From sequence record PQ511146.1: a stretch of DNA of 64,000 nucleotides; one strand, written 5' to 3'. Source of the DNA: Escherichia phage NHEP1. A program made the translations under genes and the position numbers. Each line of letters opens with the position of its first letter. The first letter of the stretch is position 1. The notes beneath the pieces are model-generated. The model ran no database searches and was not told the origin of the DNA. It saw nothing but the letters and a program-made list of their open reading frames with translations. Positions 1 through 17,806 of this stretch are shown piece by piece.

Positions 1-225
1 TAACAGTGCACCAGACAGAATCCCCTTCATCATCTTTAAAGGTAAGACACTGGGCCGAGTTTTCCAACTCATCAAGTTCTTCTTGTGATAAATAGGTCCC
101 TTCTTCCAGAAGGGCTTTTACCAGAGGGTTCTCACAAAACTCTGCTTCATAAATTGCACCGAGTGTGCAATCTTTAAAAGCTCGGTCATTTGCAACGCAT
201 TCTGGCTTCAAAGTAATTTTCATCT
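1..225 (-). CDS. hypothetical protein, partial (C-terminus beyond window edge)
   Basis: ATG at 225-223 on minus strand preceded by GGAG SD; frame open to position 1; absent from ORF track because truncated. Confidence 0.45.
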
Positions 226-298
226 TGGCGGTCTCCTTAATTATTTAAAATCAACGCTCTGTCTGTGTGGGGTATCTTACATCTACCCCAACTTGTTG

Positions 299-670
299 TC
301 AACGACTATTTTCAATCATCCACCAAGGATCGAGATAAGTTTGTTGACTTTTTGCCCACTGGCAAACTTCATTGTACATCTGGATCTCTTTGTCCGTCAG
401 TTCACGAATAGGCTCATCTATACCCTCATTTTTGTGGTAATCCCAGTCGGCATCGATTTCCCACAACCATGACTTACGATCTTCACGTTTACGCACACAG
501 AAGTCCCCAGGACGGCCTGCCAGTGCATTTAGGAACTCGTTCTCCGCTCGCTCCTGGAGAATACTAAGGAGCAAAACGTTGGAGCATGACCGTAAAATAT
601 GCTTCAGCTCACAATCATCGATCTCAACTTCAATACGTTGCTTGACTGTGTGGGTACCTTTTACTAACAT
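299..670 (-). CDS. hypothetical protein
   Basis: Track ORF 299..697 begins at TTG; internal ATG at 670 is preceded by AGGAGGT SD, so start moved. Confidence 0.55.
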   Translation of the reverse strand: MLVKGTHTVKQRIEVEIDDCELKHILRSCSNVLLLSILQERAENEFLNALAGRPGDFCVRKREDRKSWLWEIDADWDYHKNEGIDEPIRELTDKEIQMYNEVCQWAKSQQTYLDPWWMIENSR

Positions 671-680
671 TCTACCTCCT

Positions 681-875
681 CTAGACGAACTCTGCAAGGG
701 TTGTGTTGTTCACTGCACCGCAGTAGATGGAGTATCCCAACCCGTTAGGGTGTAGAAACCACGGCACACCTTGATCATCCTTCACGTATACATCTCCATT
801 TTCCGTAAAGGGCCAATACTCTTCTCCAAGGGTAAAATACCTACTCATACCTTCAGCCAGATACTTTACTTTCAT
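681..875 (-). CDS. small hypothetical protein, member 1 of a tandem paralog triplet
   Basis: 64 aa; shares motif DDxGxxWF/L...G...G...A.F with the next two ORFs. Confidence 0.5.
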   Translation of the reverse strand: MKVKYLAEGMSRYFTLGEEYWPFTENGDVYVKDDQGVPWFLHPNGLGYSIYCGAVNNTTLAEFV

Positions 876-1099
876 AGATCCTCTTCAACAGCTACAAACT
901 TGGCAAGTAGGGTGGTTCCATAGATATGATACTCACCGTTTGCCAGATGGGAGATAAACCAGGCAACACCGTCCTCGTCTTCGATCATATTGTTTCTGCG
1001 ATCCTCGTCGTAATAAACCTTGTAGACCTTACCTTCTTCAAAGAATGATAGGTCTGTCATCTTCTCTTCTACAAATGTCGCTTTAACCAAAGTTGTCAT
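872..1099 (-). CDS. small hypothetical protein, member 2 of tandem paralog triplet
   Basis: 75 aa; EDEDGVAWFISHLANGEYHIYGTTLLAKF matches paralog motif; overlapping stop/start with neighbours. Confidence 0.5.
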   Translation of the reverse strand: MTTLVKATFVEEKMTDLSFFEEGKVYKVYYDEDRRNNMIEDEDGVAWFISHLANGEYHIYGTTLLAKFVAVEEDL

Positions 1100-1380
1100 T
1101 GATCTGCCTCCTTCTTGTTGAGCCGGAACACTGCAATAATAGCATTTCCAAGATGCAGTGTCAAATCATTTCCCAGATACCATAACATTCCACGGTCATC
1201 TTTAATGAAAGGGTAACAATCCGGTGCCTTCCAGACATTATACACTTTGCCGACCTGAAAGAAATCAGGCCCTGTTGGAATTTTAGTACCGGGCCATACT
1301 TGGGACACCTGAACGCATTCTACCTGCATAATGACAGGGATAGTCATGGAGGTAAATGTTTTTGTTGGTTCTACTACCAT
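1096..1380 (-). CDS. small hypothetical protein, member 3 of tandem paralog triplet
   Basis: Track ORF 1096..1470 overlaps polymerase 3' end; ATG at 1380 preceded by GAGAGGAGA SD; KDDRGMLWYLGNDLTLHLGNAIIAVF matches paralog motif. Confidence 0.5.
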   Translation of the reverse strand: MVVEPTKTFTSMTIPVIMQVECVQVSQVWPGTKIPTGPDFFQVGKVYNVWKAPDCYPFIKDDRGMLWYLGNDLTLHLGNAIIAVFRLNKKEADQ

Positions 1381-1429
1381 AAAAGTCTCCTCTCTGTCTA
1401 ACAACACTTCCGTGTGTTGATAGTTTACA

Positions 1430-4400
1430 TTAGTGACAATCACCCCAGTTACGACCGCACAAGTATTCACCTGTGATCTGGAACGGAACGCCCATCATTT
1501 TAGAAGCCTGCCAGAAGCAATGCACCACCATTTCGCCCACAGGGCTCCAGATAAGCTCAAGCTTTCCGTCATCATTCAAGATAGGATCGTATACCGTATT
1601 TCCATCCTTGTCAACCACTTCGTTTCCGTCCTCATCTTTGCGTGCCTTTTTGTACTTATGACCGTCGAACACATGAAGTTTAGCCTCTTGTTGGGCTTTA
1701 AATGTTTCCAGCTCTTCAATTGTGTCGAAGGTGTATACGGTTTTATACTTAGGTGTGTCAGGCACTTGAAGCTGATATTCGTCATGGTAATAGATAATAC
1801 GACGAACACCCTCATCATACCATCCACGCTTCACCATCTGGTGGTGCATGAGGATTCCGACCAAGTCGCACAACGATGCACCGCCATTTTGCTGATATGC
1901 ATTAAGCAAAGAGTGTTTAGAGCGGGTCCAAATGGCATGCCCGTCAAAAGAGTAGATAAATTTCTTACCTGTTGCTTCCCAGAATTTCTCCAGATCCTCT
2001 TTACGCCCCTTAAGGCCCGGGTTGGCATCCCAGAGAGCATCAATTACTCTCTGTCCAAGTTCTGGAGAGATATCTAGCATATCTGCAACTTTATCTTTTT
2101 GTGCCCCGTACATAACCCCATATGTGACAGGCTTACCATCGTTACGGGAAATCTCCTTGCCTGCTACAGAAGAGTAAGCTTTGGCGTTATTACAGTTACC
2201 GCACACTGCCACTTTACCATTCCTTCTCACAATGATTGCTCCAGAAGGGACGGTAACGCAATAAACCAAAGAACCGCTCACCTCGACAGACTCTTTAGAT
2301 AGTGTCAGCAACCCTGCTCTCTGTTTGCTACCAATCGTGATTCTGTGCTGTACGGAACGACCTTTTTTGTGAATCGCCACCGTATTATTCCGTAAACCAC
2401 ACTGAGTAGCCAGCGCAGACACAACCTCTACAGATTTCTTCCTGCACCCGGCCTGAGAGTAGTAGGCAACTTTTCCACCTTCGGAAGATACCCACCCGTC
2501 CCAGTTAGATAAAGAAGCTATAAACAGGTTTTTAGATTCTTTATCAAGGTCCATCAGGTTGTAGGTGAAATCCTTATTGCTGTCCAAAAACTCAAATACC
2601 CAGGACGGAACGTGGAATTGGAACCTTCTCGCCAGTAAGCCCCCTTTTGTGGTTTTCCCGCTCTGCTCTACATAACTAAGGCTTAGAGCAGAAAAAGTAT
2701 CTAAAAGCGTTGCAACTTTTCTGCCCTTCCCGACCTGAATCCTGCACACGATGCTGCCGTCCTTATTTGTATGCAAGTGCCCATCATCGTGAATAGCAAT
2801 AAGCAAATTAACCTGGGCAGGAGATAAGGTTGTATTCCCATAAAACTCTGCCGCATGGATAAACCTTCTTCCTGAATTAGACCCTTTACCTGCTTTCAGG
2901 TCTTTTGCCAAATCTTCAAACAATTTATTGCTTCTGTGATCCACGGTCAGCATCCTGTGTTGATCTGTAACCATAAAATCCACACTGCTGTTGTGGAAAT
3001 GATACATATCCCCACAATAACTACGCTTAACGTAATTTAATGGAGTAACAAGGTTCATCGACGAGGTGTTGTGATCGTACTGGAACACCTGTGTTCCCGG
3101 ATCAAGATCTTCAAACCTCACCCACCCTTTCTCCGTGAGAATTTGTGTATCTCCTGAATAACAGTGTGCATCGCCGTTACTTACAACATCATAATACAGA
3201 CCGTTGTCAAACTCAAAGGCACCCCAGGCCCCGATGAGCTGCTCTAAGTTGGACCCGTCAATACCGATCTCAAAGTATCCTGGAGGAACACCCCACAGAC
3301 TACGCATCTCTTTACCCATAACCACTTTAGGAGATGGTTTAGGCATGTTTGCACAAATACTATGTTTCTGTCTGGAAGTGTTTGTTAATCCAGAACTTTT
3401 AGCAGGAAGCTTGTGGTCAATCTTCAAACGTGGATGATTAAGAAGACCAGTATCAACCTTATCTTCCTTGATTGGATCAAGGACCGATCTGCGGTTTCGC
3501 AATGATAACCACAAAACGATATCTTTAGCCATCTCTCCGTTCAATTTTTCAAGATTCGGGCACAGGTGTCCAAACGTATCTTTCAGTTGCGGAGAAGTAA
3601 TAAGCGCTCTGGCTTTTCTACGTATCTTCCCAAACACTTCCTTTTTAATCCTTTCTGAGTTAGGGAAGCTTCGGAACTTATGCACAGTTGTCTGGAACTT
3701 GGCATCAGTTTTGTTCCAGAAGTTGATAATTAGATCACAATACTCTGACTCCAAAAGCTCGTCCATATATGCATATACTCGTGCATCAACATCTGCATCA
3801 GGTAAAGCTTTCTTCTTGCTGTCTTTAGTTACATCTTTAGTTCTCCACATTGTTGGGAGCCAACCAGCACTGATCAGGTATCGCTTGATGTCGTCCTGAT
3901 TGCTGATTTTCATAGGTATCTTGCAGTCAGGCATTCGCTTCTGCTGTAGGTCACTTATCGCCTGATCCATCAGCTCTTTAGGTAAAGGGTGTGGTGTAGA
4001 AGTTCCTTTGATATACCCCCTCAAGAAATCAGCCATCTTATCGGGGTCTTTACAGCCCATCTCTTCACACCATTTTATCCCCATCTTACTTACATCCCCT
4101 GTGGAGGTAAATGCTCGCTTAGGAGGAGCTTTGAACTCTAAAGCACTCATGTCCACAGGGTAGCCAAGCTTGTCTTTTAACCATTTCCAACCATTATTGG
4201 AGATTGTCCCATCTTGGTTAAACGGCTTTTCAGGGAACTTAGGCCGCTGAGACATTGATAACTCTTTTAAAGGAAGTTGTGGTTCAACACGATCAGCGAT
4301 CTCTTTCATCCACGCATCGCAACGGTCACGTAAAGCAATAGCCCCATCTATGTCGAAATACACCCCCTGTCGAGCCTGCAGCTCCATCAGGAAGTGCTGT

Positions 4401-5176
4401 AACATGCCTCGGCGTAATGCGTTCTTCCAGGTGATCTTCTTGAAGCCTTTCGGCTTCTCTTTGGCAGGATCGTACATAAAGTTCTGCATGTCAGATTTGC
4501 CGTAGAATACACCTTTTGATTCCGCTACCAACTCCTTCCAGAGCAACTCCTGGATGATAACGTCCTCGAACACACGATCCACATACTTCCACAGTGGAAG
4601 CTCACGCCAGTCATCGATTTGAACTTTCTGGTTACCAAGGGCATAGCCCCATGCCATAAGGCCATGAGGCCCAACAGGCTGCATTTTCTTGGTAACTGGA
4701 TTGAATACTGCGTCCGGACAACCTTTTGGCAAAGGGCGGTCAGGCCACAAGATTCGGCTCATCGCTAACGTATCAAACAGATTAACCGGGTGGTCGTTGA
4801 TAGTCCCCATGCATTTAGGATCACGGAACATATCAAAATGAATACCGGATAATCTTTCCATCAGCATAAAGTCGTAACTGTAGCAGTTATGACAGTTCAA
4901 AGCCGTAGGTGACCAGTCTGAATTGCCTGTAAGCCAACCTTCCAACTCTGAAAAATCTGCTATGCGAGCCTCAAAATCTGTATAAAGGGTCTTCTTTGCC
5001 AGAATGAAGTTCTTAGCTTTCTCCACATCCTCTTCAGAGTAGTGTGTGCGGTCATTTAGAGGAAGGAACAGCATAAAACGGTTCTTATTCAGCTCTTTAA
5101 ACAAACCGCAGTGATAATAAAGATCTGGGTCTTCCAGCAGGCCAGAGGCCTCAAAATCGAACGACCACATGCTCAT
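1430..5176 (-). CDS. DNA polymerase, family A, with N-terminal 3'-5' exonuclease domain; intein-containing precursor
   Basis: 1248 aa; Exo I motif FDFEASGL; Pol A motif A-like IDGSNLEQL, motif B KxxxYGxMYG, motif C YYHDE; AAGGAG SD before ATG at 5176. Confidence 0.9.
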   Translation of the reverse strand: MSMWSFDFEASGLLEDPDLYYHCGLFKELNKNRFMLFLPLNDRTHYSEEDVEKAKNFILAKKTLYTDFEARIADFSELEGWLTGNSDWSPTALNCHNCYSYDFMLMERLSGIHFDMFRDPKCMGTINDHPVNLFDTLAMSRILWPDRPLPKGCPDAVFNPVTKKMQPVGPHGLMAWGYALGNQKVQIDDWRELPLWKYVDRVFEDVIIQELLWKELVAESKGVFYGKSDMQNFMYDPAKEKPKGFKKITWKNALRRGMLQHFLMELQARQGVYFDIDGAIALRDRCDAWMKEIADRVEPQLPLKELSMSQRPKFPEKPFNQDGTISNNGWKWLKDKLGYPVDMSALEFKAPPKRAFTSTGDVSKMGIKWCEEMGCKDPDKMADFLRGYIKGTSTPHPLPKELMDQAISDLQQKRMPDCKIPMKISNQDDIKRYLISAGWLPTMWRTKDVTKDSKKKALPDADVDARVYAYMDELLESEYCDLIINFWNKTDAKFQTTVHKFRSFPNSERIKKEVFGKIRRKARALITSPQLKDTFGHLCPNLEKLNGEMAKDIVLWLSLRNRRSVLDPIKEDKVDTGLLNHPRLKIDHKLPAKSSGLTNTSRQKHSICANMPKPSPKVVMGKEMRSLWGVPPGYFEIGIDGSNLEQLIGAWGAFEFDNGLYYDVVSNGDAHCYSGDTQILTEKGWVRFEDLDPGTQVFQYDHNTSSMNLVTPLNYVKRSYCGDMYHFHNSSVDFMVTDQHRMLTVDHRSNKLFEDLAKDLKAGKGSNSGRRFIHAAEFYGNTTLSPAQVNLLIAIHDDGHLHTNKDGSIVCRIQVGKGRKVATLLDTFSALSLSYVEQSGKTTKGGLLARRFQFHVPSWVFEFLDSNKDFTYNLMDLDKESKNLFIASLSNWDGWVSSEGGKVAYYSQAGCRKKSVEVVSALATQCGLRNNTVAIHKKGRSVQHRITIGSKQRAGLLTLSKESVEVSGSLVYCVTVPSGAIIVRRNGKVAVCGNCNNAKAYSSVAGKEISRNDGKPVTYGVMYGAQKDKVADMLDISPELGQRVIDALWDANPGLKGRKEDLEKFWEATGKKFIYSFDGHAIWTRSKHSLLNAYQQNGGASLCDLVGILMHHQMVKRGWYDEGVRRIIYYHDEYQLQVPDTPKYKTVYTFDTIEELETFKAQQEAKLHVFDGHKYKKARKDEDGNEVVDKDGNTVYDPILNDDGKLELIWSPVGEMVVHCFWQASKMMGVPFQITGEYLCGRNWGDCH
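2195..3163 (-). mobile_element. intein (about 323 aa) in DNA polymerase between motifs A and B, with putative LAGLIDADG-type homing endonuclease
   Basis: Begins CYSGDTQIL (block A, Cys1 codon at 3163-3161); TxxH block B (VTDQH); LLIAIHDDG and IASLSNWDG resemble LAGLIDADG; ends ...VAVCGN with +1 Cys; motif B resumes right after. Confidence 0.7.
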
Positions 5177-9373: not shown

Positions 9374-10717
9374 TTACTCTAAATCTTCTTCTGAGTCAAG
9401 CTTATCTTTCACAGCTAAATTAGGGGCAAGTTTGTAATAGCGAAAGCCCCCACCGCCTTGCCAGTTTACAGATTTAGAAATACCACTTTGATCTTCACCA
9501 TCGATCACTTTTTGCAAGCGTGGAATAATATGGGTATGACAATGATCTCCTAGCTCAACCGAGATCCAACGTCTTTTCATCTTGTGAGCTACAGCAGCAG
9601 TAGTTCCAGAACCACCAAATGAATCCAATACTAAATCTCCTTCTCGCGTACACATTTCTAAAATCCGCTTCAAAAGCGCTTCAGGTTTTTTTCCATTTTT
9701 GAAACTAACGCCCCCTTCATTTGCTATTCCATTCCAACTAATGTCAGTCCAAACATCAGTTATTAGTTCAGCAGGCTGCATCTCACCGTCAATTTCCAAA
9801 AGCCTGTTGGAATAAAAGACCATTTGCCTACCATTTGCGATATAAAAGCCTTCGACATCCTCATTTGGATGTACATAAACCTTATCCCTATCTTTCTTTG
9901 ACTTCTCGATAGTTTCTTTTCTCTTTATTTTGGCACCACCGCCAATTGCAACGGATTGAAATACACGTTCTGCATTATCAATTGCAAATTGTGCTAATTC
10001 ATCATCAAATGTATCAGGCAGTTTTTTCTTGGCTTCTTTTGTATCTTTATAGCCATTGGCCTTTGCAAACGCATCGGCAATACCGCACCACGTCCAACTT
10101 TTATAATGGTCATCTGGGTTTAATAGATATTTGTTATATCCCGTATCATACTCTTTAGGTATATAGATTTTGTTAAGTGGTTTCTTGGTACGATCTTTTG
10201 CATATACAAGCAAAAAGTTTGCTGTGGAGAAAACTGTAGTTCCTGTTGCCTTAAAGCCTGAAGGGCAATTTGTAGTCATCGATATGGTATTTAACTGATT
10301 TGCACGACCAAAAATCTCGTCCATCAAGACTTTTAAATAAGCCATTTCGCAGTCATCTAAGTGAACGAATATCACTCCATCATCGCTTAGCAGATTACGA
10401 ATTATTTCTAATCTGTCCCGCATTAAGCCCAGCCAAAGGGAGTGCTCCAGGCTATCATCGTAGTGCTCAAAATCCCTTCCGGTATTGAATGGCGGGTCTA
10501 TGTAAACACACTTCACTTTGCCTGCATACTCTTGCTCTAGTGCCTTCAATGCCAGTAAGTTATCTCCAAAAATCAGTTTATTATCAAAAATATCGTTTTC
10601 GGTCACCTTTTTACTGGCGTGATAAGACTTGCTCGAATCTTCTAACAAAATGTGAGGCTCTAGCTTTTTGCGCTCGTTCTTACCTATCCAGGTAAGTTCT
10701 AATTTGGTTTTACTCAT
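9374..10717 (-). CDS. DNA methyltransferase, N6-adenine/N4-cytosine beta class
   Basis: 447 aa; motif IV IDPPF precedes motif I DSFGGSGTT (beta-class order). Confidence 0.85.
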   Translation of the reverse strand: MSKTKLELTWIGKNERKKLEPHILLEDSSKSYHASKKVTENDIFDNKLIFGDNLLALKALEQEYAGKVKCVYIDPPFNTGRDFEHYDDSLEHSLWLGLMRDRLEIIRNLLSDDGVIFVHLDDCEMAYLKVLMDEIFGRANQLNTISMTTNCPSGFKATGTTVFSTANFLLVYAKDRTKKPLNKIYIPKEYDTGYNKYLLNPDDHYKSWTWCGIADAFAKANGYKDTKEAKKKLPDTFDDELAQFAIDNAERVFQSVAIGGGAKIKRKETIEKSKKDRDKVYVHPNEDVEGFYIANGRQMVFYSNRLLEIDGEMQPAELITDVWTDISWNGIANEGGVSFKNGKKPEALLKRILEMCTREGDLVLDSFGGSGTTAAVAHKMKRRWISVELGDHCHTHIIPRLQKVIDGEDQSGISKSVNWQGGGGFRYYKLAPNLAVKDKLDSEEDLE

Positions 10718-10778: not shown

Positions 10779-11120
10779 CTACTCAAGGTCTTCAGAGTCA
10801 AGCTCAAAAAGAATCAAACTGTGCATGCCTGCAGAGAGATCAACACACCCTGCAACAATAAGGGTTTGATAGTAAGGTTCAGCACCCTCAATATCTTCGT
10901 TAAAATCCACAACAAGGTAGTCACCTTTGTTAAAGGTGTATTTGTCCGATGTAAACGCAAAACCTGCCCAGTCCCCTACTGCAGGATCTTTATCAGTCAC
11001 CTTTGTTAGCAGTAGATCTTTTTCACGAGATCTTTTAGTAAAATCGTGAATCACAACATCCTTCTCTTCAGGAGTCGGATTGCCACACACGTAGTTAACG
11101 ATATTTCTCCACAAACTCAT
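10779..11120 (-). CDS. hypothetical protein
   Basis: 113 aa ORF; stop overlaps start region of next gene. Confidence 0.55.
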   Translation of the reverse strand: MSLWRNIVNYVCGNPTPEEKDVVIHDFTKRSREKDLLLTKVTDKDPAVGDWAGFAFTSDKYTFNKGDYLVVDFNEDIEGAEPYYQTLIVAGCVDLSAGMHSLILFELDSEDLE

Positions 11121-12487
11121 ACGTCCCCCTTTTCTGCTCTAGTTTCAAAATCTTTCCTGACTTTCTCGTCTAAGCCAGGGAAAGTTGTATTATAAAACTC
11201 TACGACTCTCGGGTCAACAATAATATCCACCTCTCTTAATGGACGCAACAAGTTTATTCCTTGTATCGTCTTAACCCGACTCAAGGCAACATACGTCATT
11301 CCGGGAGAGAAAGCTCCGTTCTTTCCGAGGTCTAGGTTGTAACAATCTAACGTAAGTCCTTGACTTTTATGCGATGTTACTGCGTACCCAGATTTCAAAG
11401 GAAGTTGCTCATAAGACCCGATCACAACCCTCTCTATGAACTTCTCCATCTTCCTTTCGGCAATATTGTACCTCTGGGAAGGTTTGTACTCGTTATTCTC
11501 CCACAATCTCGGCTCAATTTCAACCTGTGTCCCGTCTTCCAGCTCAACCACCACAGACTTGGTCTTGAATTTTACCACTGTGGCGCGTGTCCCGTTGACA
11601 TAGTACGGAACTTTATGTGTCGGGTCAACATCGTTTGAGGTTATCATAACCTTCATCCCTATCTTCAGCCTCATTTCCTGCTCCACAGGCAGTGTGGAGG
11701 GGAACTTACCTTTCATTTTACCAATGTAGGTCTTCTCTGGGGCCTTGATGGCATCATAGAAACGTCTGTTCACCTCCTCTGCTTGCTTATTGGTGGCACA
11801 GATGGTCAAGGCATCTGTTGGGACACCACCATGATAGCAACGAGTGTTAAGCTCTGCTACAACCTCTTTTATGCGACGACCTTCACGAACACAGTTCAAC
11901 ATTGTGGCGAAGCGAACAGATTCCTGACGGAACTGGTCTACTAATGCTATATTGTGAAGATTAAGATCCTCCCAAGATTTTGTATAGCAACACAGGTCTG
12001 TGTGGTAGAAGTTGAAGTAGGCTTCTTTCTCCATAGAAGAGACAACTGGGGGTGCTTGGTAGAAATCTCCAAACAATAGCACCTGAATGCCTCCGAAAGG
12101 TTTGTCATTTTTCCGAAGAAAGCGGAGTTTTCTATCCATCTCTATGAACTTGTCAGCACGGATCATAGAGATTTCATCGATAATTAGGATGGTAAATGCC
12201 TTGCTTTTCAGAGGCTTTGCTGTTTTTGCCCTTATTGCTGTCCAGTCTGACTCCATGCTCACACCTGCGGCAAGATCGAAAGTTCGGTGCGCTGTTGCTC
12301 CATTAACGTTTAAAGCGGCTACCCCTGTCGGGGCAACCGTTATGCAAGAGTCTCCATACATGGACTGGATCATGTTGATAAGATATGTCTTCCCGGTTCC
12401 ACCGGGTCCACTTACGAAGACATTCTCACCACTCATGATTGCAACAAGGGCAGCATCTGTGCCTACATCGTACTGCCCTTTTTCCAT
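11117..12487 (-). CDS. SF1 DNA helicase, Dda/RecD/Pif1-like
   Basis: 456 aa; Walker A GPGGTGKT, Walker B IIDEISM, C-terminal SHKSQGLT and YVALSRV motifs. Confidence 0.85.
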   Translation of the reverse strand: MEKGQYDVGTDAALVAIMSGENVFVSGPGGTGKTYLINMIQSMYGDSCITVAPTGVAALNVNGATAHRTFDLAAGVSMESDWTAIRAKTAKPLKSKAFTILIIDEISMIRADKFIEMDRKLRFLRKNDKPFGGIQVLLFGDFYQAPPVVSSMEKEAYFNFYHTDLCCYTKSWEDLNLHNIALVDQFRQESVRFATMLNCVREGRRIKEVVAELNTRCYHGGVPTDALTICATNKQAEEVNRRFYDAIKAPEKTYIGKMKGKFPSTLPVEQEMRLKIGMKVMITSNDVDPTHKVPYYVNGTRATVVKFKTKSVVVELEDGTQVEIEPRLWENNEYKPSQRYNIAERKMEKFIERVVIGSYEQLPLKSGYAVTSHKSQGLTLDCYNLDLGKNGAFSPGMTYVALSRVKTIQGINLLRPLREVDIIVDPRVVEFYNTTFPGLDEKVRKDFETRAEKGDV

Positions 12488-13692
12488 TACGCCTCCTCGT
12501 AGATAATGTCGATAGTATTACCGTCGCGGTCAACCACGTACTCAATTGGGTCGCCATCTTTGCGTGATTCTGGAGCTACTACGATTTCGTAGCGGCATGC
12601 ACGGCACTTGGCGCTGTTGTGTTGGTAAGGTACACTAACTACATCAGCAGGGTCAACCATGACCGTCATCACAGTTCCGTAGCTCTTTGCATACTCTTTG
12701 CTGGCACAGTGCAGGCCATAAGAGCATGCAGCTTCCGGATCATCCTCTACAAAGTTACGGGGCATGGATACAAAAGCTCCCTGGTATTGTGGGACTTTAC
12801 CACTGTGCCAATCCACCCACTTGTCGCCGTTAAACTGAACCCCTTTGTAGCAAATGATTCGACCATCTTCTGCAATCTGAATGTCGTTTGCCTGCATAAA
12901 ATCGTAGAGCATGTTTACAGATTTTGCAGAAGGATTGCGTAGCAGGCGAACGAGGAATTTCACATAGCGGTCATCCAGTGTTCCGTCTGCATAATCTTTC
13001 TCAATTTTCTTTGCAATGGTGGATCGCATCTCTACACCGTAGTAGTAGAGCTTACCATCTTTCATGATCAGGTTGTCTGCAAGTGTGGTGAACTCATTCT
13101 TGCGTTCCAGCCAGACAAGGATTTCACCAATTGCCTCGTCATATTCCTGAACAGAGATATGGTCGAAGACTTTCTGGTAAACTTCCTCACTTTCACTGCG
13201 GCGAATTTCAAAAATACCTTCGTTGCAGGTGATCTGGAGGAGTTCCCCGCAAATAACCACCAAAGGCTCGATGCTTCGGGTCTGTTGCTGAGACACACTG
13301 CTCACCACCTCCAGCACCGGGTCTTTTACTTCTACTAAAGGTTCTTCTGACTTGATTGCTACCCCAGTGAACCCTACACCGTGAACAACACACAGTGGAT
13401 ATACCACACCCCAACGTTTAACGGAACCTTCTCCTGAATCTAAGATCATGGCGTACTTACCGTTATCTTCCAGCCCATATCGAAATAAACGGGCCTCTTC
13501 ACGGGTTTCAAAATCCTCACGGGTGTAGCAGACGCTGTCACGGTCAGGATCGAACAACTCTGGGGCACCTACTGCCAGTGTCCAGGTTGTGTTACCTTTC
13601 TCAATAGCGCATGTGAAACCCTTCTTCTCAAGCTCTGCACGGCGGTCACGTGCTTCTTTACGAGTTTTGAAATGTTCGTAGATGAAAATCAT
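12487..13692 (-). CDS. rIIB-like protein (tentative)
   Basis: Directly downstream of GHKL-ATPase gene; C-terminal region (MLYDFMQANDIQIAEDG...DVVSVPYQHNSAKCRACRYEIV) resembles my recollection of T4 rIIB; start moved to ATG after AAGGAGA SD. Confidence 0.45.
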   Translation of the reverse strand: MIFIYEHFKTRKEARDRRAELEKKGFTCAIEKGNTTWTLAVGAPELFDPDRDSVCYTREDFETREEARLFRYGLEDNGKYAMILDSGEGSVKRWGVVYPLCVVHGVGFTGVAIKSEEPLVEVKDPVLEVVSSVSQQQTRSIEPLVVICGELLQITCNEGIFEIRRSESEEVYQKVFDHISVQEYDEAIGEILVWLERKNEFTTLADNLIMKDGKLYYYGVEMRSTIAKKIEKDYADGTLDDRYVKFLVRLLRNPSAKSVNMLYDFMQANDIQIAEDGRIICYKGVQFNGDKWVDWHSGKVPQYQGAFVSMPRNFVEDDPEAACSYGLHCASKEYAKSYGTVMTVMVDPADVVSVPYQHNSAKCRACRYEIVVAPESRKDGDPIEYVVDRDGNTIDIIYEEA

Positions 13693-13702
13693 CTTGGTCT
13701 CC

Positions 13703-15685
13703 TTATTTGATGTTATTCTTTGTATCAATCAGTTCACGGTATTCAATCATAGCAGGAGTGTCCCAATATTTCAAGCCTACATGCTTCAAAAGTGGATATT
13801 TCTTTTCCAATCTTGCAATATAGGCCTTCCCGCACTTAACCCGGTTGGCGATTAAGATTTTGGCACGATGATTTAGCTCACCGTACTTCCACGTGGTGCT
13901 ACCTTCCCACTTGTGGAAATGTGGCCGATAACTTCCAAAATCCTGCATGGGGATAATTTTACCTAACTGTCTGTACAGGCTGTCATATGAAGTTTCATTT
14001 GCTGCGCGAGTTAGTAAGAATTTCCAAGCATCCTCTTTCAACAAATGTTCCACATTCTTCTCTGTAACATATTGGCAATCAGGATCAGTCCAAAGCAGAC
14101 GAGATTCCGACACCAGGTACAGATCTTCCCCTTCAGGAATCTGGAGTGCCGCACGCACACGGTCATAATCTTGCTGGTAGATGTTGCTCATCTGCCCTAG
14201 CCAACAACTTCCGCGTTGGATATCCCCCTCATACGGTATGCAGTGCTTAATCTTCCTGAACTCTGCCTTAGTAATACGCTCACGCCGGAAGTAACCATCC
14301 TTCTCAAGTTTTTTAACCCAATAGCCTGGTTCGTAACGGGTTTTGGTTTCACCTTTCTTCGTAGGTCGGCGTGGAAGCTCCGATAACAATTTGACCGTAT
14401 CTGCAAAAAACGGATGGTGTGCCGCCTCTTTAAACTCTTTCACCAGATCCGTGTTACGGCAATAGAAAACGTTGCGTCCGGTAATCTCGCTTAAGTAGTT
14501 ACACTTATTCCGGTTATATTTGCCGTCTCCGTCGTTAAATACTAAATAAACTCCCCGTAAGAATTCTACCTTTCCGTAGCAGGCGTAACCTATGCGGCCT
14601 TTATTTAAGCCGCCAGCGAAGATCTCGCAGTCCCCCAAATTTCCTAGCCCTGTTTCTTCCCAGCGGTCATACATAAAATTCTTACCGAAGATGTGCCCGA
14701 ACACTCCACTGTTCTTCATCATCTCGCGTGCTTCTGAGGATGTTTTTGCTGTCTCCAGTTCTGCAACAACTTCTGCTCCACGAAGGCGAATGCCTTCTTT
14801 GACAAAAGCTTCCAAACGCTCTTGGAATCCACCATCGTCGTGACCTTCTATGGTCCATTCACGCCCTGGGTTAATATTGCAATCTCCGATAGGGATCTCT
14901 ACACAAATTGCAGGATAATCTATTAGTGTCTCCAGGAACTTAGAACGGTAAGGTTGGTGACCCATTACCACACGACTCTCGTCAGAGCTGGTATAACCCT
15001 TCAGGATGGTCATCTTCCAACCATCTTTTTCATAATAATACTGCGCCTCTACTTTGTCTCCCTCCAGCATCTTGCTCGTCATCGGGTCGGTGACAGTGAA
15101 CGGAAATTTTGCATAGCGCAGGCATGATGCAATAGCGGTGCGATATTTCAGAACATGCTCTTTCTTAACATGAAACTGAACTTTTACCCCGTTGTGCTCT
15201 TCAGTCTTCCGCTCACGGATCTTGGTGACATTTGGGATACCCTGGTCCAAGAACAATAGGTATGTGCTTTCCACACCGTTGTGCACACTGATTACATCGA
15301 AAGTGTCCACCATACTGAACGGGGCCTTTGAACCAACACCTTTATTGCCTACCAGAGCGTTGCTGTTGCGCTTGGTTGACTCTCCGAGGTTCATGAAGGT
15401 GTTGCGGACCATCTCTTCTGACATGCCTAATCCAACGTCCTGCACAAAGAAGTATGGTTCAAGGTCTGTAGGAGAGTGAATGATGATCGGAACATCACCC
15501 CGTCCAGACTCAACATGGGAGTCCACAGCATTGAAGATCGGTTCACGGCAGCTTGCCAGCACCTTATCTTCATAAATCCCTTTGATGATTAGCCCAAAAG
15601 TCTCTTTGTTCAGAGAAATTGATCCCCTGGTTACCTCCATATTCCCAGTTAGCACCGCTTTAGTTTCACTGCTGTTTACAATCAT
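13703..15685 (-). CDS. GHKL-family ATPase, rIIA-like (tentative)
   Basis: 660 aa; Bergerat-fold motifs FNAVDS (N box), DVGLGM (G1), GNKGVGSKA (G2) in N-terminal third; AAGGAG SD. Confidence 0.55.
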   Translation of the reverse strand: MIVNSSETKAVLTGNMEVTRGSISLNKETFGLIIKGIYEDKVLASCREPIFNAVDSHVESGRGDVPIIIHSPTDLEPYFFVQDVGLGMSEEMVRNTFMNLGESTKRNSNALVGNKGVGSKAPFSMVDTFDVISVHNGVESTYLLFLDQGIPNVTKIRERKTEEHNGVKVQFHVKKEHVLKYRTAIASCLRYAKFPFTVTDPMTSKMLEGDKVEAQYYYEKDGWKMTILKGYTSSDESRVVMGHQPYRSKFLETLIDYPAICVEIPIGDCNINPGREWTIEGHDDGGFQERLEAFVKEGIRLRGAEVVAELETAKTSSEAREMMKNSGVFGHIFGKNFMYDRWEETGLGNLGDCEIFAGGLNKGRIGYACYGKVEFLRGVYLVFNDGDGKYNRNKCNYLSEITGRNVFYCRNTDLVKEFKEAAHHPFFADTVKLLSELPRRPTKKGETKTRYEPGYWVKKLEKDGYFRRERITKAEFRKIKHCIPYEGDIQRGSCWLGQMSNIYQQDYDRVRAALQIPEGEDLYLVSESRLLWTDPDCQYVTEKNVEHLLKEDAWKFLLTRAANETSYDSLYRQLGKIIPMQDFGSYRPHFHKWEGSTTWKYGELNHRAKILIANRVKCGKAYIARLEKKYPLLKHVGLKYWDTPAMIEYRELIDTKNNIK

Positions 15686-16182
15686 TTATTGCGCTCCTTG
15701 TAGTAGATATGACTCCCGAATTGAGCTGTCCTCTGCATCTTTTTTGCCCATTTCGGTCGTACTTTTGTTGTATGGTAGTGTGTTGCTCCGCCTGTTATAT
15801 CCATAGCCATGTATGCAACATGGTTGTTATTATAGACCTTTAGAAGCATCTTTGCAAGACTTTTAGCGTGATCCCATGAATCTTTTTCTGTCACCTTAAA
15901 AGTTTTGCCGTGGTTTGTCCACGAAAACTGGTTAGGTTGGTAGACAATCTTTCTTATAGTGTCTGGGTATTTGGGGTGAGATTTCCTGTTTAGTGTGGCA
16001 AACCCAGATGCCAGCATACCCATCGTGCCATCCCCTCTAGCCTCCCTGTAGATATTGCATGCCAGAATGTTTTCCTTAGTATCCGACGGCTTGCAGGTGT
16101 GATATACTTTTTGTTTTGGTGCTGCAACAACAGGCAGCGATAAAAATGCGCTCAAAATAATAGCAAAGATCTTAGTTTTCAC
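15682..16182 (-). CDS. cell wall hydrolase, SleB/Hydrolase_2-like, with N-terminal signal peptide
   Basis: 166 aa; signal peptide MKTKIFAIILSAFLSLPVVAAP; NIYREARGDG, NQFS and GATHYH motifs; GTG start after GGAG SD; stop overlaps rIIA-like start. Confidence 0.65.
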   Translation of the reverse strand: MKTKIFAIILSAFLSLPVVAAPKQKVYHTCKPSDTKENILACNIYREARGDGTMGMLASGFATLNRKSHPKYPDTIRKIVYQPNQFSWTNHGKTFKVTEKDSWDHAKSLAKMLLKVYNNNHVAYMAMDITGGATHYHTTKVRPKWAKKMQRTAQFGSHIYYKERNK

Positions 16183-16187
16183 AATAG

Positions 16188-16218
16188 CTCCAAATAGAAA
16201 ATCCCCGCCGAAGCGGGG
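16188..16218 (-). terminator. rho-independent terminator (UUCG tetraloop)
   Basis: Minus transcript CCCCGC-UUCG-GCGGGG followed by AUUUUCUAUUU; downstream of 16232..16612. Confidence 0.65.
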
Positions 16219-16231
16219 TGTGTCTTAGAAA

Positions 16232-16612
16232 TTAATCGTAGTGTGCCAAAATCTCTCCATCGTTGCAAGTCCCCTCTACGAAGTTGTGAAGATTCATGCA
16301 TTCATCTTGATAGAAGAATTTACCGCTTTTCAGCCGTAGACCAAACAACTCCGCATCTCCACGATGGCAAGCCTCTACAAGTTCATAGATTTCATACGGT
16401 AACTCTCCATCGTCATGGAAGAACCCCGCTTTATCGTTGACATAGATGAAGAAATAGTCACTGCTGTCGCAAGCGTCCAGTATTTTAAACCAGATTTCAT
16501 CCACATCTTTTTCTCGGATATCGATCACACAAGTGGAGCTGCATTCGTACTCCTTCTCCGGCTCCTCGGTCAATACCACCAAGTAGTTTCCCCGCTTACC
16601 TACTTTAGCCAT
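16232..16612 (-). CDS. hypothetical protein
   Basis: 126 aa ORF. Confidence 0.55.
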   Translation of the reverse strand: MAKVGKRGNYLVVLTEEPEKEYECSSTCVIDIREKDVDEIWFKILDACDSSDYFFIYVNDKAGFFHDDGELPYEIYELVEACHRGDAELFGLRLKSGKFFYQDECMNLHNFVEGTCNDGEILAHYD

Positions 16613-16621
16613 ACAACCTCC

Positions 16622-17806
16622 TCAAGCTTTAGCTAAAATGGCGCTAAACTCTTCACCAAACTCTTTTACAATCTTCATCAGGTTTGGGTATGCTTTGATC
16701 AGCTGAGCGACGATCTTGTCCCTGCCTTTACCAATAAGTAAGGCATTTCCTAAGGCGTTAGGTTTCATCATCGCCATAAAGACTGAGAATACAAAGTCTC
16801 GGTTCTCATCCTTGAAATTTTCCCAAAGGAAATCAAGGAAGTTTGCCACACAGCTGACAAGATCTTCGTCGGAGATACTTGCATTTTCCATCATATTACG
16901 AATAGCGATACAACCTTCTGACCCCAGAATCCACAAGATGTCTGGCTGCTTAGGACCTACATATTCTTTGCAGCCTCCTGCCATAATCCGACCGATTTCT
17001 GGCAAGTTTCGTTTCTTGGTGTGGTAGGTCCAAATTTCTACCGCTGCAGTGTGACCAATTGCACCTTGTAGAAGGACACGGGCCATAGCGTCAGAAATAA
17101 TACCGCTGTCAAAATCGTGCAGGATGTCAGATGCAGCAACCCAAGATCGCGGTGTGGCAAAAGATGGACAATTAATCTCAGCCATGGCCTCATAATTATC
17201 AATGGCTGATGGGACTCTTTTCAGATATCCAATTACAGAGGAGTGCACCCCATTAAGGAATGCATAGTCCTCAATAAACACCTCTGCACTGCTTGTAACT
17301 TCTACAATGATAAAGCGGTTAGCTAGAGGAGCTTCGAGCGCCGAAAGAACAGCACCGTCTGTAGCACGGTTACCTGCAGCTACAAAAACAGAGCCCTTAG
17401 GAAATGCATAGGTGCCGCACTTGTGGTCGAGCATAATTTGCATTGCAACCTTCTGCAGGTAGTTATCTGCATGAGTAAGCTCGTCTAGAAAGATAATTCC
17501 GCTCCAGTCCGGATCTGCAGGCCAAAATTCTGGAATTGCAAACACTGTACGTGTAGTCCCATCCGACTCTACAGGGATAGGTAGCCCAGATAAGTCAGCA
17601 GGGTCTTTATCTGACAGTCGCACGTCAACAAGGTTGTCATCTCGCTCACCGAACATATTATCAGCGATCTGCTTCATCACCTGACTTTTACCCACACCCA
17701 TTGGTCCCAAAATTAGGACAGATCGGCTATGACGTTGGGCAAACTGAATAATGGCTGGCAACTCACGGACAGTGATTTGACCACTTTCGAATACGTTTCT
17801 TGACAT
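16622..17806 (-). CDS. AAA+ ATPase, MoxR/CobS-like (AAA_5-type)
   Basis: 394 aa; Walker A ILGPMGVGKSQV, Walker B IIFLDELTHA. Confidence 0.75.
   Translation of the reverse strand: MSRNVFESGQITVRELPAIIQFAQRHSRSVLILGPMGVGKSQVMKQIADNMFGERDDNLVDVRLSDKDPADLSGLPIPVESDGTTRTVFAIPEFWPADPDWSGIIFLDELTHADNYLQKVAMQIMLDHKCGTYAFPKGSVFVAAGNRATDGAVLSALEAPLANRFIIVEVTSSAEVFIEDYAFLNGVHSSVIGYLKRVPSAIDNYEAMAEINCPSFATPRSWVAASDILHDFDSGIISDAMARVLLQGAIGHTAAVEIWTYHTKKRNLPEIGRIMAGGCKEYVGPKQPDILWILGSEGCIAIRNMMENASISDEDLVSCVANFLDFLWENFKDENRDFVFSVFMAMMKPNALGNALLIGKGRDKIVAQLIKAYPNLMKIVKEFGEEFSAILAKA

Follow-up and report, generated by a model that had tools for sequence, protein, structure and literature searches.

A 64,000-nucleotide (nt) stretch of the genome of Escherichia phage NHEP1 (sequence record PQ511146.1), referred to here as the window, carries a tightly packed block of co-directional genes on the minus strand at 11117..16218, in which a gene for a cell wall hydrolase with a predicted export signal precedes homologues of the rIIA and rIIB genes of phage T4 and a helicase gene (Table 1). 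Over positions 11000-17000 the window shares 99.4% DNA identity with Escherichia phage S127 BCL3 and 99.2% with vB_EcoM-ECP26. This interval is matched by 121 phage records, nearly all of them Vequintavirus, that carry the block, and identity across the hydrolase-rII block is 92-99% in closely related genomes. The phage is an rV5-like Vequintavirus and the region its gp2-gp1-gp238 block, identifications that we regard as near certain. In phage rV5, gene 1 is rIIA (660 amino acids (aa)) and gene 2 encodes a cell wall hydrolase (166 aa, PF07486) (PMC3606486 Table S3), gene 238 is rIIB (401 aa) and gene 237 encodes a PIF1 ATPase (456 aa) (Kropinski et al. 2013, PMC3606486); gene 2 lies at 1980..2480 and gene 1 at 1..1983, so that the two overlap by 4 nt (PMC3606486). 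Gene order, all four protein sizes, the 4-nt overlap and an upstream terminator, t003, are shared between rV5 and the window, which differs from rV5 in nothing of substance and adds one more isolate to the genus. As annotation none of this is new, since the genes and their arrangement, including the overlap and the terminator, have been in print for rV5 since 2013. Our analysis concerns what the hydrolase, which we call gp2 after its rV5 counterpart, might do.

Table 1 Features of the hydrolase-rII block in the window, and short open reading frames that follow the hydrolase gene at related loci
Feature	Position	Strand	Basis or remark
Intrinsic-terminator-like hairpin	16192..16218	-	Identical to rV5 terminator t003
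gp2-type SleB-family (Hydrolase_2) murein hydrolase with predicted export signal, 166 aa, GTG start	15682..16182	-	PF07486, AlphaFold2, Foldseek
ATGA overlap of hydrolase TGA and rIIA ATG	15682..15685	-	Sequence; also in rV5
Sigma-70-like promoter match inside the hydrolase coding sequence	15829..15857	-	10/12 consensus positions
rIIA homologue, 660 aa	13703..15685	-	phrog_612, PF13589; rV5 gp1
rIIB homologue, 401 aa	12487..13692	-	phrog_609; rV5 gp238
Dda/PIF1-type helicase, 456 aa	11117..12487	-	PF05970, phrog_325
Open reading frame with 1-2 transmembrane segments after the hydrolase gene	L013 6524-6679; L015 6536-6691; L021 6440-6667; L018 6511-6744; L023 6495-6686		
Open reading frame with 1-2 transmembrane segments after the hydrolase gene	L024 6509-6739; L026 6528-6725; L027 6477-6665; L034 6528-6725		

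A SleB-family hydrolase with an N-terminal export signal

An initial annotation of the window, made from the sequence alone, described gp2 as a SleB-like hydrolase with an N-terminal signal peptide, a description that our searches bear out. Gp2 scored 70.4 bits against the Pfam family Hydrolase_2 (PF07486; cut-off 27) over profile positions 2-100 of 100, matched phrog_938, labelled 'endolysin', with E=1.7e-27, and in a phmmer search against PDB sequences matched the SleB catalytic domains 4F55 and 4FET and nothing else. An AlphaFold2 model of gp2 built from 11 sequences (mean predicted local distance difference test score (pLDDT) 88.3) led to the same two structures, which were the only ones in the PDB found by Foldseek at E<1e-3 (probability 1.0, target template modelling score 0.72-0.79). 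Glu47 of gp2, in the motif YREARGD (codon 16042..16044), is aligned with the Glu of YGESRGE in 4F55 and 4FET, which, with numbering derived from chain offsets, we take to be the catalytic residue of SleB (E157 in B. cereus and E151 in B. anthracis). This residue is invariant in an alignment of 14 homologues and at least 90% conserved in a further homologue alignment, and the surrounding motifs vary little or not at all. Against the SleB equivalog model TIGR02869, gp2 scored 48.3 bits (cut-off 236.5), with the match confined to the catalytic part of the model (positions 83-201). Gp2 is thus a member of the SleB family and not a SleB orthologue, and the N-terminal peptidoglycan-binding domain is absent. 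By analogy with the family, gp2 would be a murein lytic transglycosylase; the mature protein is calculated to be a basic polypeptide of ~16.9 kDa with an isoelectric point of ~10.

The first 20 residues of gp2 (16123..16182), which read MKTK-IFAIILSAFLSLPVVA-AP together with the two residues that follow, resemble a signal peptide when read by hand, with an n-region (M-K-T-K) that contributes Lys2 and Lys4, a hydrophobic h-region (IFAIILSAFLSLPVVA, aa 5-20; Kyte-Doolittle value of 2.6 over 15 residues) and a c-region (V-V-A|A-P) in which the position after Ala20 is the sole cleavage site in the N-terminus that fits the -3/-1 rule. There is no lipobox, and the hydrophobic core is rich in Leu, Ile and Phe, unlike the Gly/Ala-rich anchors of signal-arrest-release (SAR) endolysins. 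This is the architecture of a cleavable Sec signal, and we infer that gp2 is exported and cleaved after Ala20. A signal-like segment is found ~30-50 residues before the catalytic Glu, or further from it in a few cases, in all of the annotated homologues and in nearly all of ~60 non-redundant homologues from IMG/VR, and AxA-type sites accompany the signal-like N-termini in every phage homologue examined. In addition, Cys30 and Cys42 are invariant in an alignment of the Vequintavirinae proteins and are present in both Stephanstirmvirinae homologues, a pattern that fits a disulfide stabilising gp2 in the periplasm.

Homologues of gp2 occur in 1,263 phage records, including Vequintavirinae, Stephanstirmvirinae, T5-like Epseptimavirus, Pakpunavirus, Nankokuvirus and pf16, and have been reported in every genus of the Vequintavirinae (PMC7344957). 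The one from Pectobacterium phage CB7 (Certrevirus), CB7_83, was noted in 2020 to carry a signal peptide, and its expression in E. coli was described as toxic (PMC7344957).

Location of the endolysin and conservation of the rII linkage

The initial annotation read gp2 as a possible signal-peptide endolysin and stated that no canonical holin-endolysin cassette was evident elsewhere. As far as the window is concerned the latter statement stands, since tblastn searches of its 64 kb with the endolysin, holin candidate and spanins of Vequintavirus found nothing; for Vequintavirus genomes it does not, these genes being located in their other half, and the cassette escaped notice because the boundaries of the window leave the lysis genes outside. 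In MaxTheCat (Bas57), a carefully annotated relative, the endolysin (bas57_0207), a holin candidate (bas57_0112) and the inner and outer spanins (bas57_0001 and 0002, next to the terminase gene) are dispersed and form no contiguous holin-endolysin-spanin cassette. A Pfam search of the Vequintavirus endolysin, holin candidate and spanins gave no matches; comparison with PDB entries placed the endolysin in the lambda lysozyme family (1AM7, E=3e-56), and 114 phage records contain it. The purified endolysin of phage ECP26, LysECP26, lyses Gram-negative cells (PMC9728275), and in rV5 the homologous gp89 was termed 'an obvious lysin' and gp129 is the holin candidate (PMC3606486). Because a separate endolysin of the lambda R type, a holin candidate and spanins are present in the same genomes, gp2 is not a missing endolysin, and the endolysin assignment made for it is not upheld. 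In the genomes that we checked or the papers that we consulted, a gp2-type enzyme is found together with an endolysin of a conventional kind or with another predicted murein hydrolase. Moreover, the type of the canonical endolysin differs even among certreviruses while the SleB-like protein spans the subfamily (PMC7344957); because gp2 is subfamily-wide and the endolysin type varies, this suggests that gp2 is not simply redundant with the endolysin.

We compared loci to ask whether the hydrolase is tied to the rII genes, with which it had been proposed to form a lysis partnership. The order hydrolase-rIIA-rIIB-dda is found in Vequintavirus, Avunavirus and several Vequintavirinae-like groups, amounting to 14 of 80 IMG/VR loci, and persists down to 35% identity in rIIA. 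The ATGA overlap between the hydrolase and rIIA genes is specific to Vequintavirus, and phage Av-05 has a gap of 20 nt in its place. In Mydovirus-like phages and at loci L018, L023 and L024, an open reading frame (ORF) of 51-77 codons encoding one or two hydrophobic helices is situated between the hydrolase gene and rIIA (Table 1). Certreviruses have kept the hydrolase and have no rII genes, and there the hydrolase gene is usually followed by a 62-65-codon ORF with two transmembrane (TM) segments that precedes dda; both the absence of rIIA and rIIB and the two-TM holin candidate have been described (PMC7344957). The products of these short ORFs could be holins, pinholins or inhibitors of the hydrolase. 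We considered whether a membrane protein encoded downstream is a universal partner of the hydrolase and rejected the idea: no ORF with one or two TM segments adjoins gp2 in Vequintavirus or Avunavirus, and such a partner is absent from the window, Av-05, phi92-like phages, Phapecoctavirus, T5-like phages and Nankokuvirus, whose downstream ORFs are without a convincing TM segment (one stretch, in anhysbys_18, is borderline). We likewise rejected the idea that the hydrolase and the upstream orf126 (rV5 gp3, T5.083-like) form a conserved pair, the two being adjacent in Vequintavirus loci only.

Outside the Vequintavirinae the picture is different. No rIIA, rIIB or dda gene was found within flanks of up to ~6 kb around the hydrolase gene in phi92-like phages, Phapecoctavirus, T5-like phages, Nankokuvirus and Pakpunavirus, nor in flanks of that size at most of the more distant IMG/VR loci. 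In these lineages the hydrolase gene typically stands among genes of nucleotide metabolism, and in the large lytic myoviruses that we examined it is located among early or replication genes. In Vibrio phage F95, which lies outside the Vequintavirinae and has both genes, the hydrolase gene and rIIA are ~23 kb apart, and T4-like phages are among the rIIA matches and not among the hydrolase matches listed. Taken together, these comparisons argue against an obligate link between the hydrolase and the rII proteins, and their proximity is probably best read as lineage-specific gene order combined with tight operon packing. Because the linkage is not conserved across other phages, the proposed partnership loses its footing, and modulation of the hydrolase by the rII proteins is purely hypothetical.

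The rII genes themselves were correctly recognised: profile searches with the three proteins matched all of the families expected from the initial annotation, and the two proteins encoded downstream of the hydrolase are homologous to rIIA and rIIB. RIIA matches phrog_612, 'RIIA', over aa 1-658 (E=4.5e-123), and its GHKL ATPase domain (HATPase_c_3, PF13589; 34.9 bits, cut-off 25) occupies aa 50-147 (15245..15538), where an N-box-like FNAVD and the Gly-rich motifs DVGLG and GNKGVG can be made out by eye. In tblastn searches it matched the rIIA genes of T4-like (e.g. RB59), FelixO1-like and other phages, with homologues in 2,642 phage records, T4-like phages among them; identity to rIIA of the T4 type is ~27-30% across the N-terminal 190 aa. 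The three reading frames are on the minus strand as first listed, with one refinement: the ORF list placed the start of rIIB at an upstream TTG (13728), whereas the true start is the ATG at 13692, 10 nt past the rIIA stop codon, which is served by a Shine-Dalgarno sequence (AAGGAG) and gives a protein of 401 aa, as in rV5 gp238. RIIB matches phrog_609, 'RIIB' (E=1.6e-61), and four more RIIB phrogs; its homologues are labelled 'rIIB lysis inhibitor' in their source records, and for rV5 a T4-like homologue was listed at 5e-32 (PMC3606486). We consider rIIA and rIIB to be ordinary homologues of the T4-type rII proteins on the strength of these matches. They have in common with T4 the N-terminal GHKL domain of rIIA, the C-terminal core of rIIB (~aa 132-373 in an alignment of 22 homologues) and the adjacency and co-orientation of the genes, and differ from it in an additional N-terminal extension of rIIB. 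To our knowledge, no hydrolase gene adjoins the rII genes in T4. T4-type rII functions protect against Rex-type exclusion, and rII mutants show rapid lysis; the papers that we consulted contained no genetic data on the rII genes of Vequintavirus.

The rIIB extension spans ~100 aa (13393..13692) and contains two conserved repeats of the form F..R..AR...G...W.V, modelled by AlphaFold2 (aa 1-109, pLDDT 77) as two beta-alpha-beta-beta repeats. We asked whether it might be a murein-binding SPOR domain that ties rIIB physically to the hydrolase. This was not established: the Pfam SPOR match is sub-threshold (19.2 bits against 21, E=0.0015), and Foldseek returned no significant match for the rIIB N-terminus, the SPOR half-domain of CwlC (1x60) appearing at rank 28 with E ~1. 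No export signal was found in rIIB, and the single stretch of moderate hydrophobicity in the protein (aa 95-113) lacks conservation. The possibility that a 61-aa Certrevirus protein encoded upstream of dda is a remnant of the rIIB repeats was also dismissed (hhalign probability 0.15%). Two database entries bear on rIIB: the GenBank record of phage YP-6 names the protein 'SPOR domain-containing', and a 498-aa metagenome protein (P0015), in which 55% of the rIIB query is matched at 100% identity and whose precomputed Pfam annotation includes many TPR-type repeat families, could be a fusion protein or a chimera produced by assembly.

Expression signals and neighbouring genes

The hydrolase gene has several features that bear on how much gp2 is made. 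The hairpin upstream of it consists of CCCCGC-TTCG-GCGGGG and a T-rich tail (ATTTTCTATTT), abuts the Shine-Dalgarno sequence of the hydrolase gene (GGAG, 16188..16191) on its upstream side and has the same sequence as rV5 t003, for which a free energy of -16 kcal/mol is given (PMC3606486 Table S4). A hairpin with a T-rich tail is found 20-25 nt before the hydrolase start in six Vequintavirinae-like groups, namely Vequintavirus, Avunavirus, Mydovirus-like, L018/L024-type, L023-type and Certrevirus (loci L022, L015, L021, L018, L023, L024, L026-L028 and L034 besides the window). Because the stem sequences differ between groups (e.g. CCCCGC/GCGGGG and AGCCCC/GGGGCT), the comparison indicates that selection acts on the structure of the hairpin and not on its sequence. 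In rV5 no promoter was predicted between t003 and genes 2, 1 and 238, and the nearest upstream promoter on the minus strand, P010, is ~4.2 kb away (PMC3606486). The hydrolase start codon is GTG (16180..16182) in Vequintavirus, TTG in Avunavirus, Mydovirus-like phages, L018/L023/L024 and both Stephanstirmvirinae genera, and ATG in Certrevirus (non-ATG starts were seen in the window and at L004, L005, L007, L008 and L015-L024). The combination of a terminator with a GTG or TTG start may limit the dose of a potentially lethal exported enzyme. The non-ATG start also seems to lead to mis-annotation of the gene: an NCBI-derived protein (P0003) is a 111-aa hydrolase fragment beginning at the internal Met56, and the Av-05 hydrolase is annotated from an upstream ATG (181 aa).

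As the initial annotation had pointed out, the hydrolase gene overlaps the start of rIIA, its stop codon and the rIIA ATG being joined as ATGA; rIIA also has its own AAGGAG 8 nt upstream. Within the hydrolase gene, ~140 nt upstream of the rIIA ATG, is a promoter-like sequence (TTGCAA-17-TATAAT) that is missing from the list of rV5 promoters; if active, it could allow rIIA and rIIB to be transcribed independently of the hydrolase gene. By eye, sigma-70-like sequences (TTGCAA-17-TACAAT or TATACT) and no hairpin are seen upstream of the hydrolase gene in muut (phi92-like, L007 ~4415-4450) and anhysbys (Phapecoctavirus, L008 ~4400-4435), which suggests that in these two phages the hydrolase gene may be an early gene with a promoter of its own.

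Next in the co-directional block is the helicase gene, whose start overlaps the rIIB stop as TAATG and whose product matches PIF1 (PF05970, E=1.2e-33) and phrog_325, 'Dda-like helicase' (E=6e-111). Two genes downstream of it is a gene for a 447-aa N6/N4 DNA methyltransferase (9374..10717, minus strand; PF01555, E=5e-44); at this position MaxTheCat has three short hypothetical genes and a Dcm-like methyltransferase, and the methyltransferase part of the block appears to be variable between isolates. We note that 16-23 'Campylobacter phage' records with C. jejuni as the host (e.g. C2, A142 and A150) match the window or the hydrolase. Phages C2 and A142 are ~92.5% identical to the window over the block, and A150 resembles muut at the hydrolase; the host labels of these records look doubtful.

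Possible roles of gp2 and comparison with known systems

On balance, we think it probable that gp2 is not the endolysin of the phage and is instead an accessory, Sec-exported murein lytic transglycosylase that acts in the periplasm at low dose. According to this proposal, gp2 would be made at a low level from a non-late transcription unit of replication genes, its dose held down by the upstream terminator hairpin and the non-ATG start codon; it would be exported by Sec, cleaved after Ala20 and oxidised to form the Cys30-Cys42 disulfide; and, while infection is in progress, it would nick the sacculus or thin it from its periplasmic face. The cell would then lyse rapidly and completely when the holin and the lambda-R-type endolysin come into play, gp2 being an accessory to the holin, endolysin and spanin pathway and no replacement for it.

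Several points weigh against this proposal. The export signal was assigned by manual analysis of the n-, h- and c-regions, and hairpins often precede genes in phage genomes. Spore SleB prefers the muramic-delta-lactam cortex, and given this preference the activity of gp2 on ordinary Gram-negative murein is an assumption. The order hydrolase-rIIA-rIIB-dda, surviving as it does to 35% rIIA identity, may leave room for a functional link, and the gene for a protein with one or two TM segments that follows the hydrolase gene in sister genera could mean that there is a genuine lysis module. The toxicity of CB7_83 was given as 'data not shown' (PMC7344957). Finally, our literature searches found no published experimental test of a Vequintavirus gp2 and no Vequintavirinae transcriptome from which the timing of expression or read-through of the terminator could be learned.

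The alternative that we take most seriously, while thinking it rather unlikely, is that gp2 remodels murein in the periplasm for a purpose apart from final lysis, such as opening of the sacculus, a change in cell shape or division, or a change in the envelope that affects superinfection. The position of its gene among genes of replication and nucleotide metabolism in Vequintavirinae, Stephanstirmvirinae, Pakpunavirus and Nankokuvirus would be in keeping with such a role, as would the sigma-70-like sequences seen by eye directly upstream in the two Stephanstirmvirinae phages and the presence of gp2 throughout a subfamily in which endolysin type varies even among certreviruses (PMC7344957). However, toxicity on expression fits a lytic effect equally well, and no partner genes for a specific envelope process were found nearby. 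The model of the initial annotation, that gp2 is the main endolysin and that the co-translated rIIA and rIIB proteins time its activity, for example through the energisation of the membrane, draws on the export signal, the intact catalytic Glu, the overlap with rIIA, the gene order in the 14 IMG/VR loci and the holin-like ORF with one or two TM segments right after the hydrolase gene in sister genera (PMC7344957 for Certrevirus). For such a model there is precedent in exported endolysins gated by the membrane potential, namely Lys44 of phage fOg44 and the SAR endolysins. We nevertheless judge it improbable: the same genomes encode a separate endolysin that is biochemically verified, a holin candidate and spanins; even Av-05 does not share the overlap with rIIA; certreviruses have the hydrolase without rII genes; the hydrolase is found in over 1,000 further phage genomes, and those examined have no rII genes near it; and T4-like phages appear in the rIIA matches and not in the hydrolase matches listed.

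That gp2 is weak or inactive on Gram-negative murein and mainly binds it would agree with the specialisation of spore SleB for muramic-lactam cortex, with the absence of the SleB N-terminal binding domain and with the failure to reach the equivalog cut-off (48.3 against 236.5 bits), yet the catalytic Glu and the surrounding motifs are invariant or nearly so among homologues and one homologue is toxic on expression, and we give this idea very little credence. Least plausible of all, to the point of being nearly negligible, is that gp2 is a virion-associated lysin that pierces the wall at DNA injection. Murein hydrolases are found in many phage virions and some databases label the family 'endolysin', but gp2 is absent from the virion proteins named from mass spectrometry of rV5 and CB7, it has a Sec-type signal, and its gene lies outside the structural module, which already holds genes annotated as a central spike/tail lysozyme and a baseplate cell-wall hydrolase.

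A more speculative reading, to which we assign only a small chance, is that gp2 of the Vequintavirinae is the effector of a second, holin-independent module for lysis or lysis timing, its activity in the periplasm depending on whether the inner membrane is energised. This gate would be set by the genes that follow the hydrolase gene (the protein with one or two TM segments, rIIA and rIIB, or both), and until it opens the terminator and the weak start codon would hold gp2 at a sublethal dose. Were this so, the rII proteins would gain a concrete partner in a murein hydrolase, and it is in the variable genes after the hydrolase that the small chance of a genuine lysis-timing module lies. More broadly, over 1,200 sequenced phages that infect Gram-negative bacteria carry a small SleB-family enzyme of this exported type, a basic domain that may be of interest to developers of enzybiotics.

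Gp2 has the Pfam family, the fold and the catalytic Glu in common with Bacillus SleB (4F55, 4FET) but is without the N-terminal PG_binding_1 domain, and it is found in a phage of a Gram-negative host, which has no muramic-lactam cortex. Its Certrevirus counterparts, CB7_83 and CR3_087 of Cronobacter phage CR3, are homologous SleB-like enzymes with a signal peptide that are encoded in the same slot upstream of a Dda-type helicase, whereas their genes start with ATG, rIIA and rIIB are missing, and a holin candidate of 62-65 aa with two TM segments follows the hydrolase. In the window no membrane-protein gene adjoins gp2, which overlaps rIIA directly. As a muralytic enzyme that would reach the periplasm or the wall by way of Sec, without a large-hole holin, gp2 is reminiscent of Lys44 of Oenococcus phage fOg44 and of the SAR endolysins P1 Lyz and R21 of phage 21. 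Those enzymes, however, are the sole endolysins of their phages and act beside a holin or pinholin, whereas here there is a separate cytoplasmic endolysin; and in place of the Gly/Ala-rich anchor of the SAR endolysins, gp2 has a Leu/Ile/Phe-rich signal that looks cleavable and ends in an AxA site.

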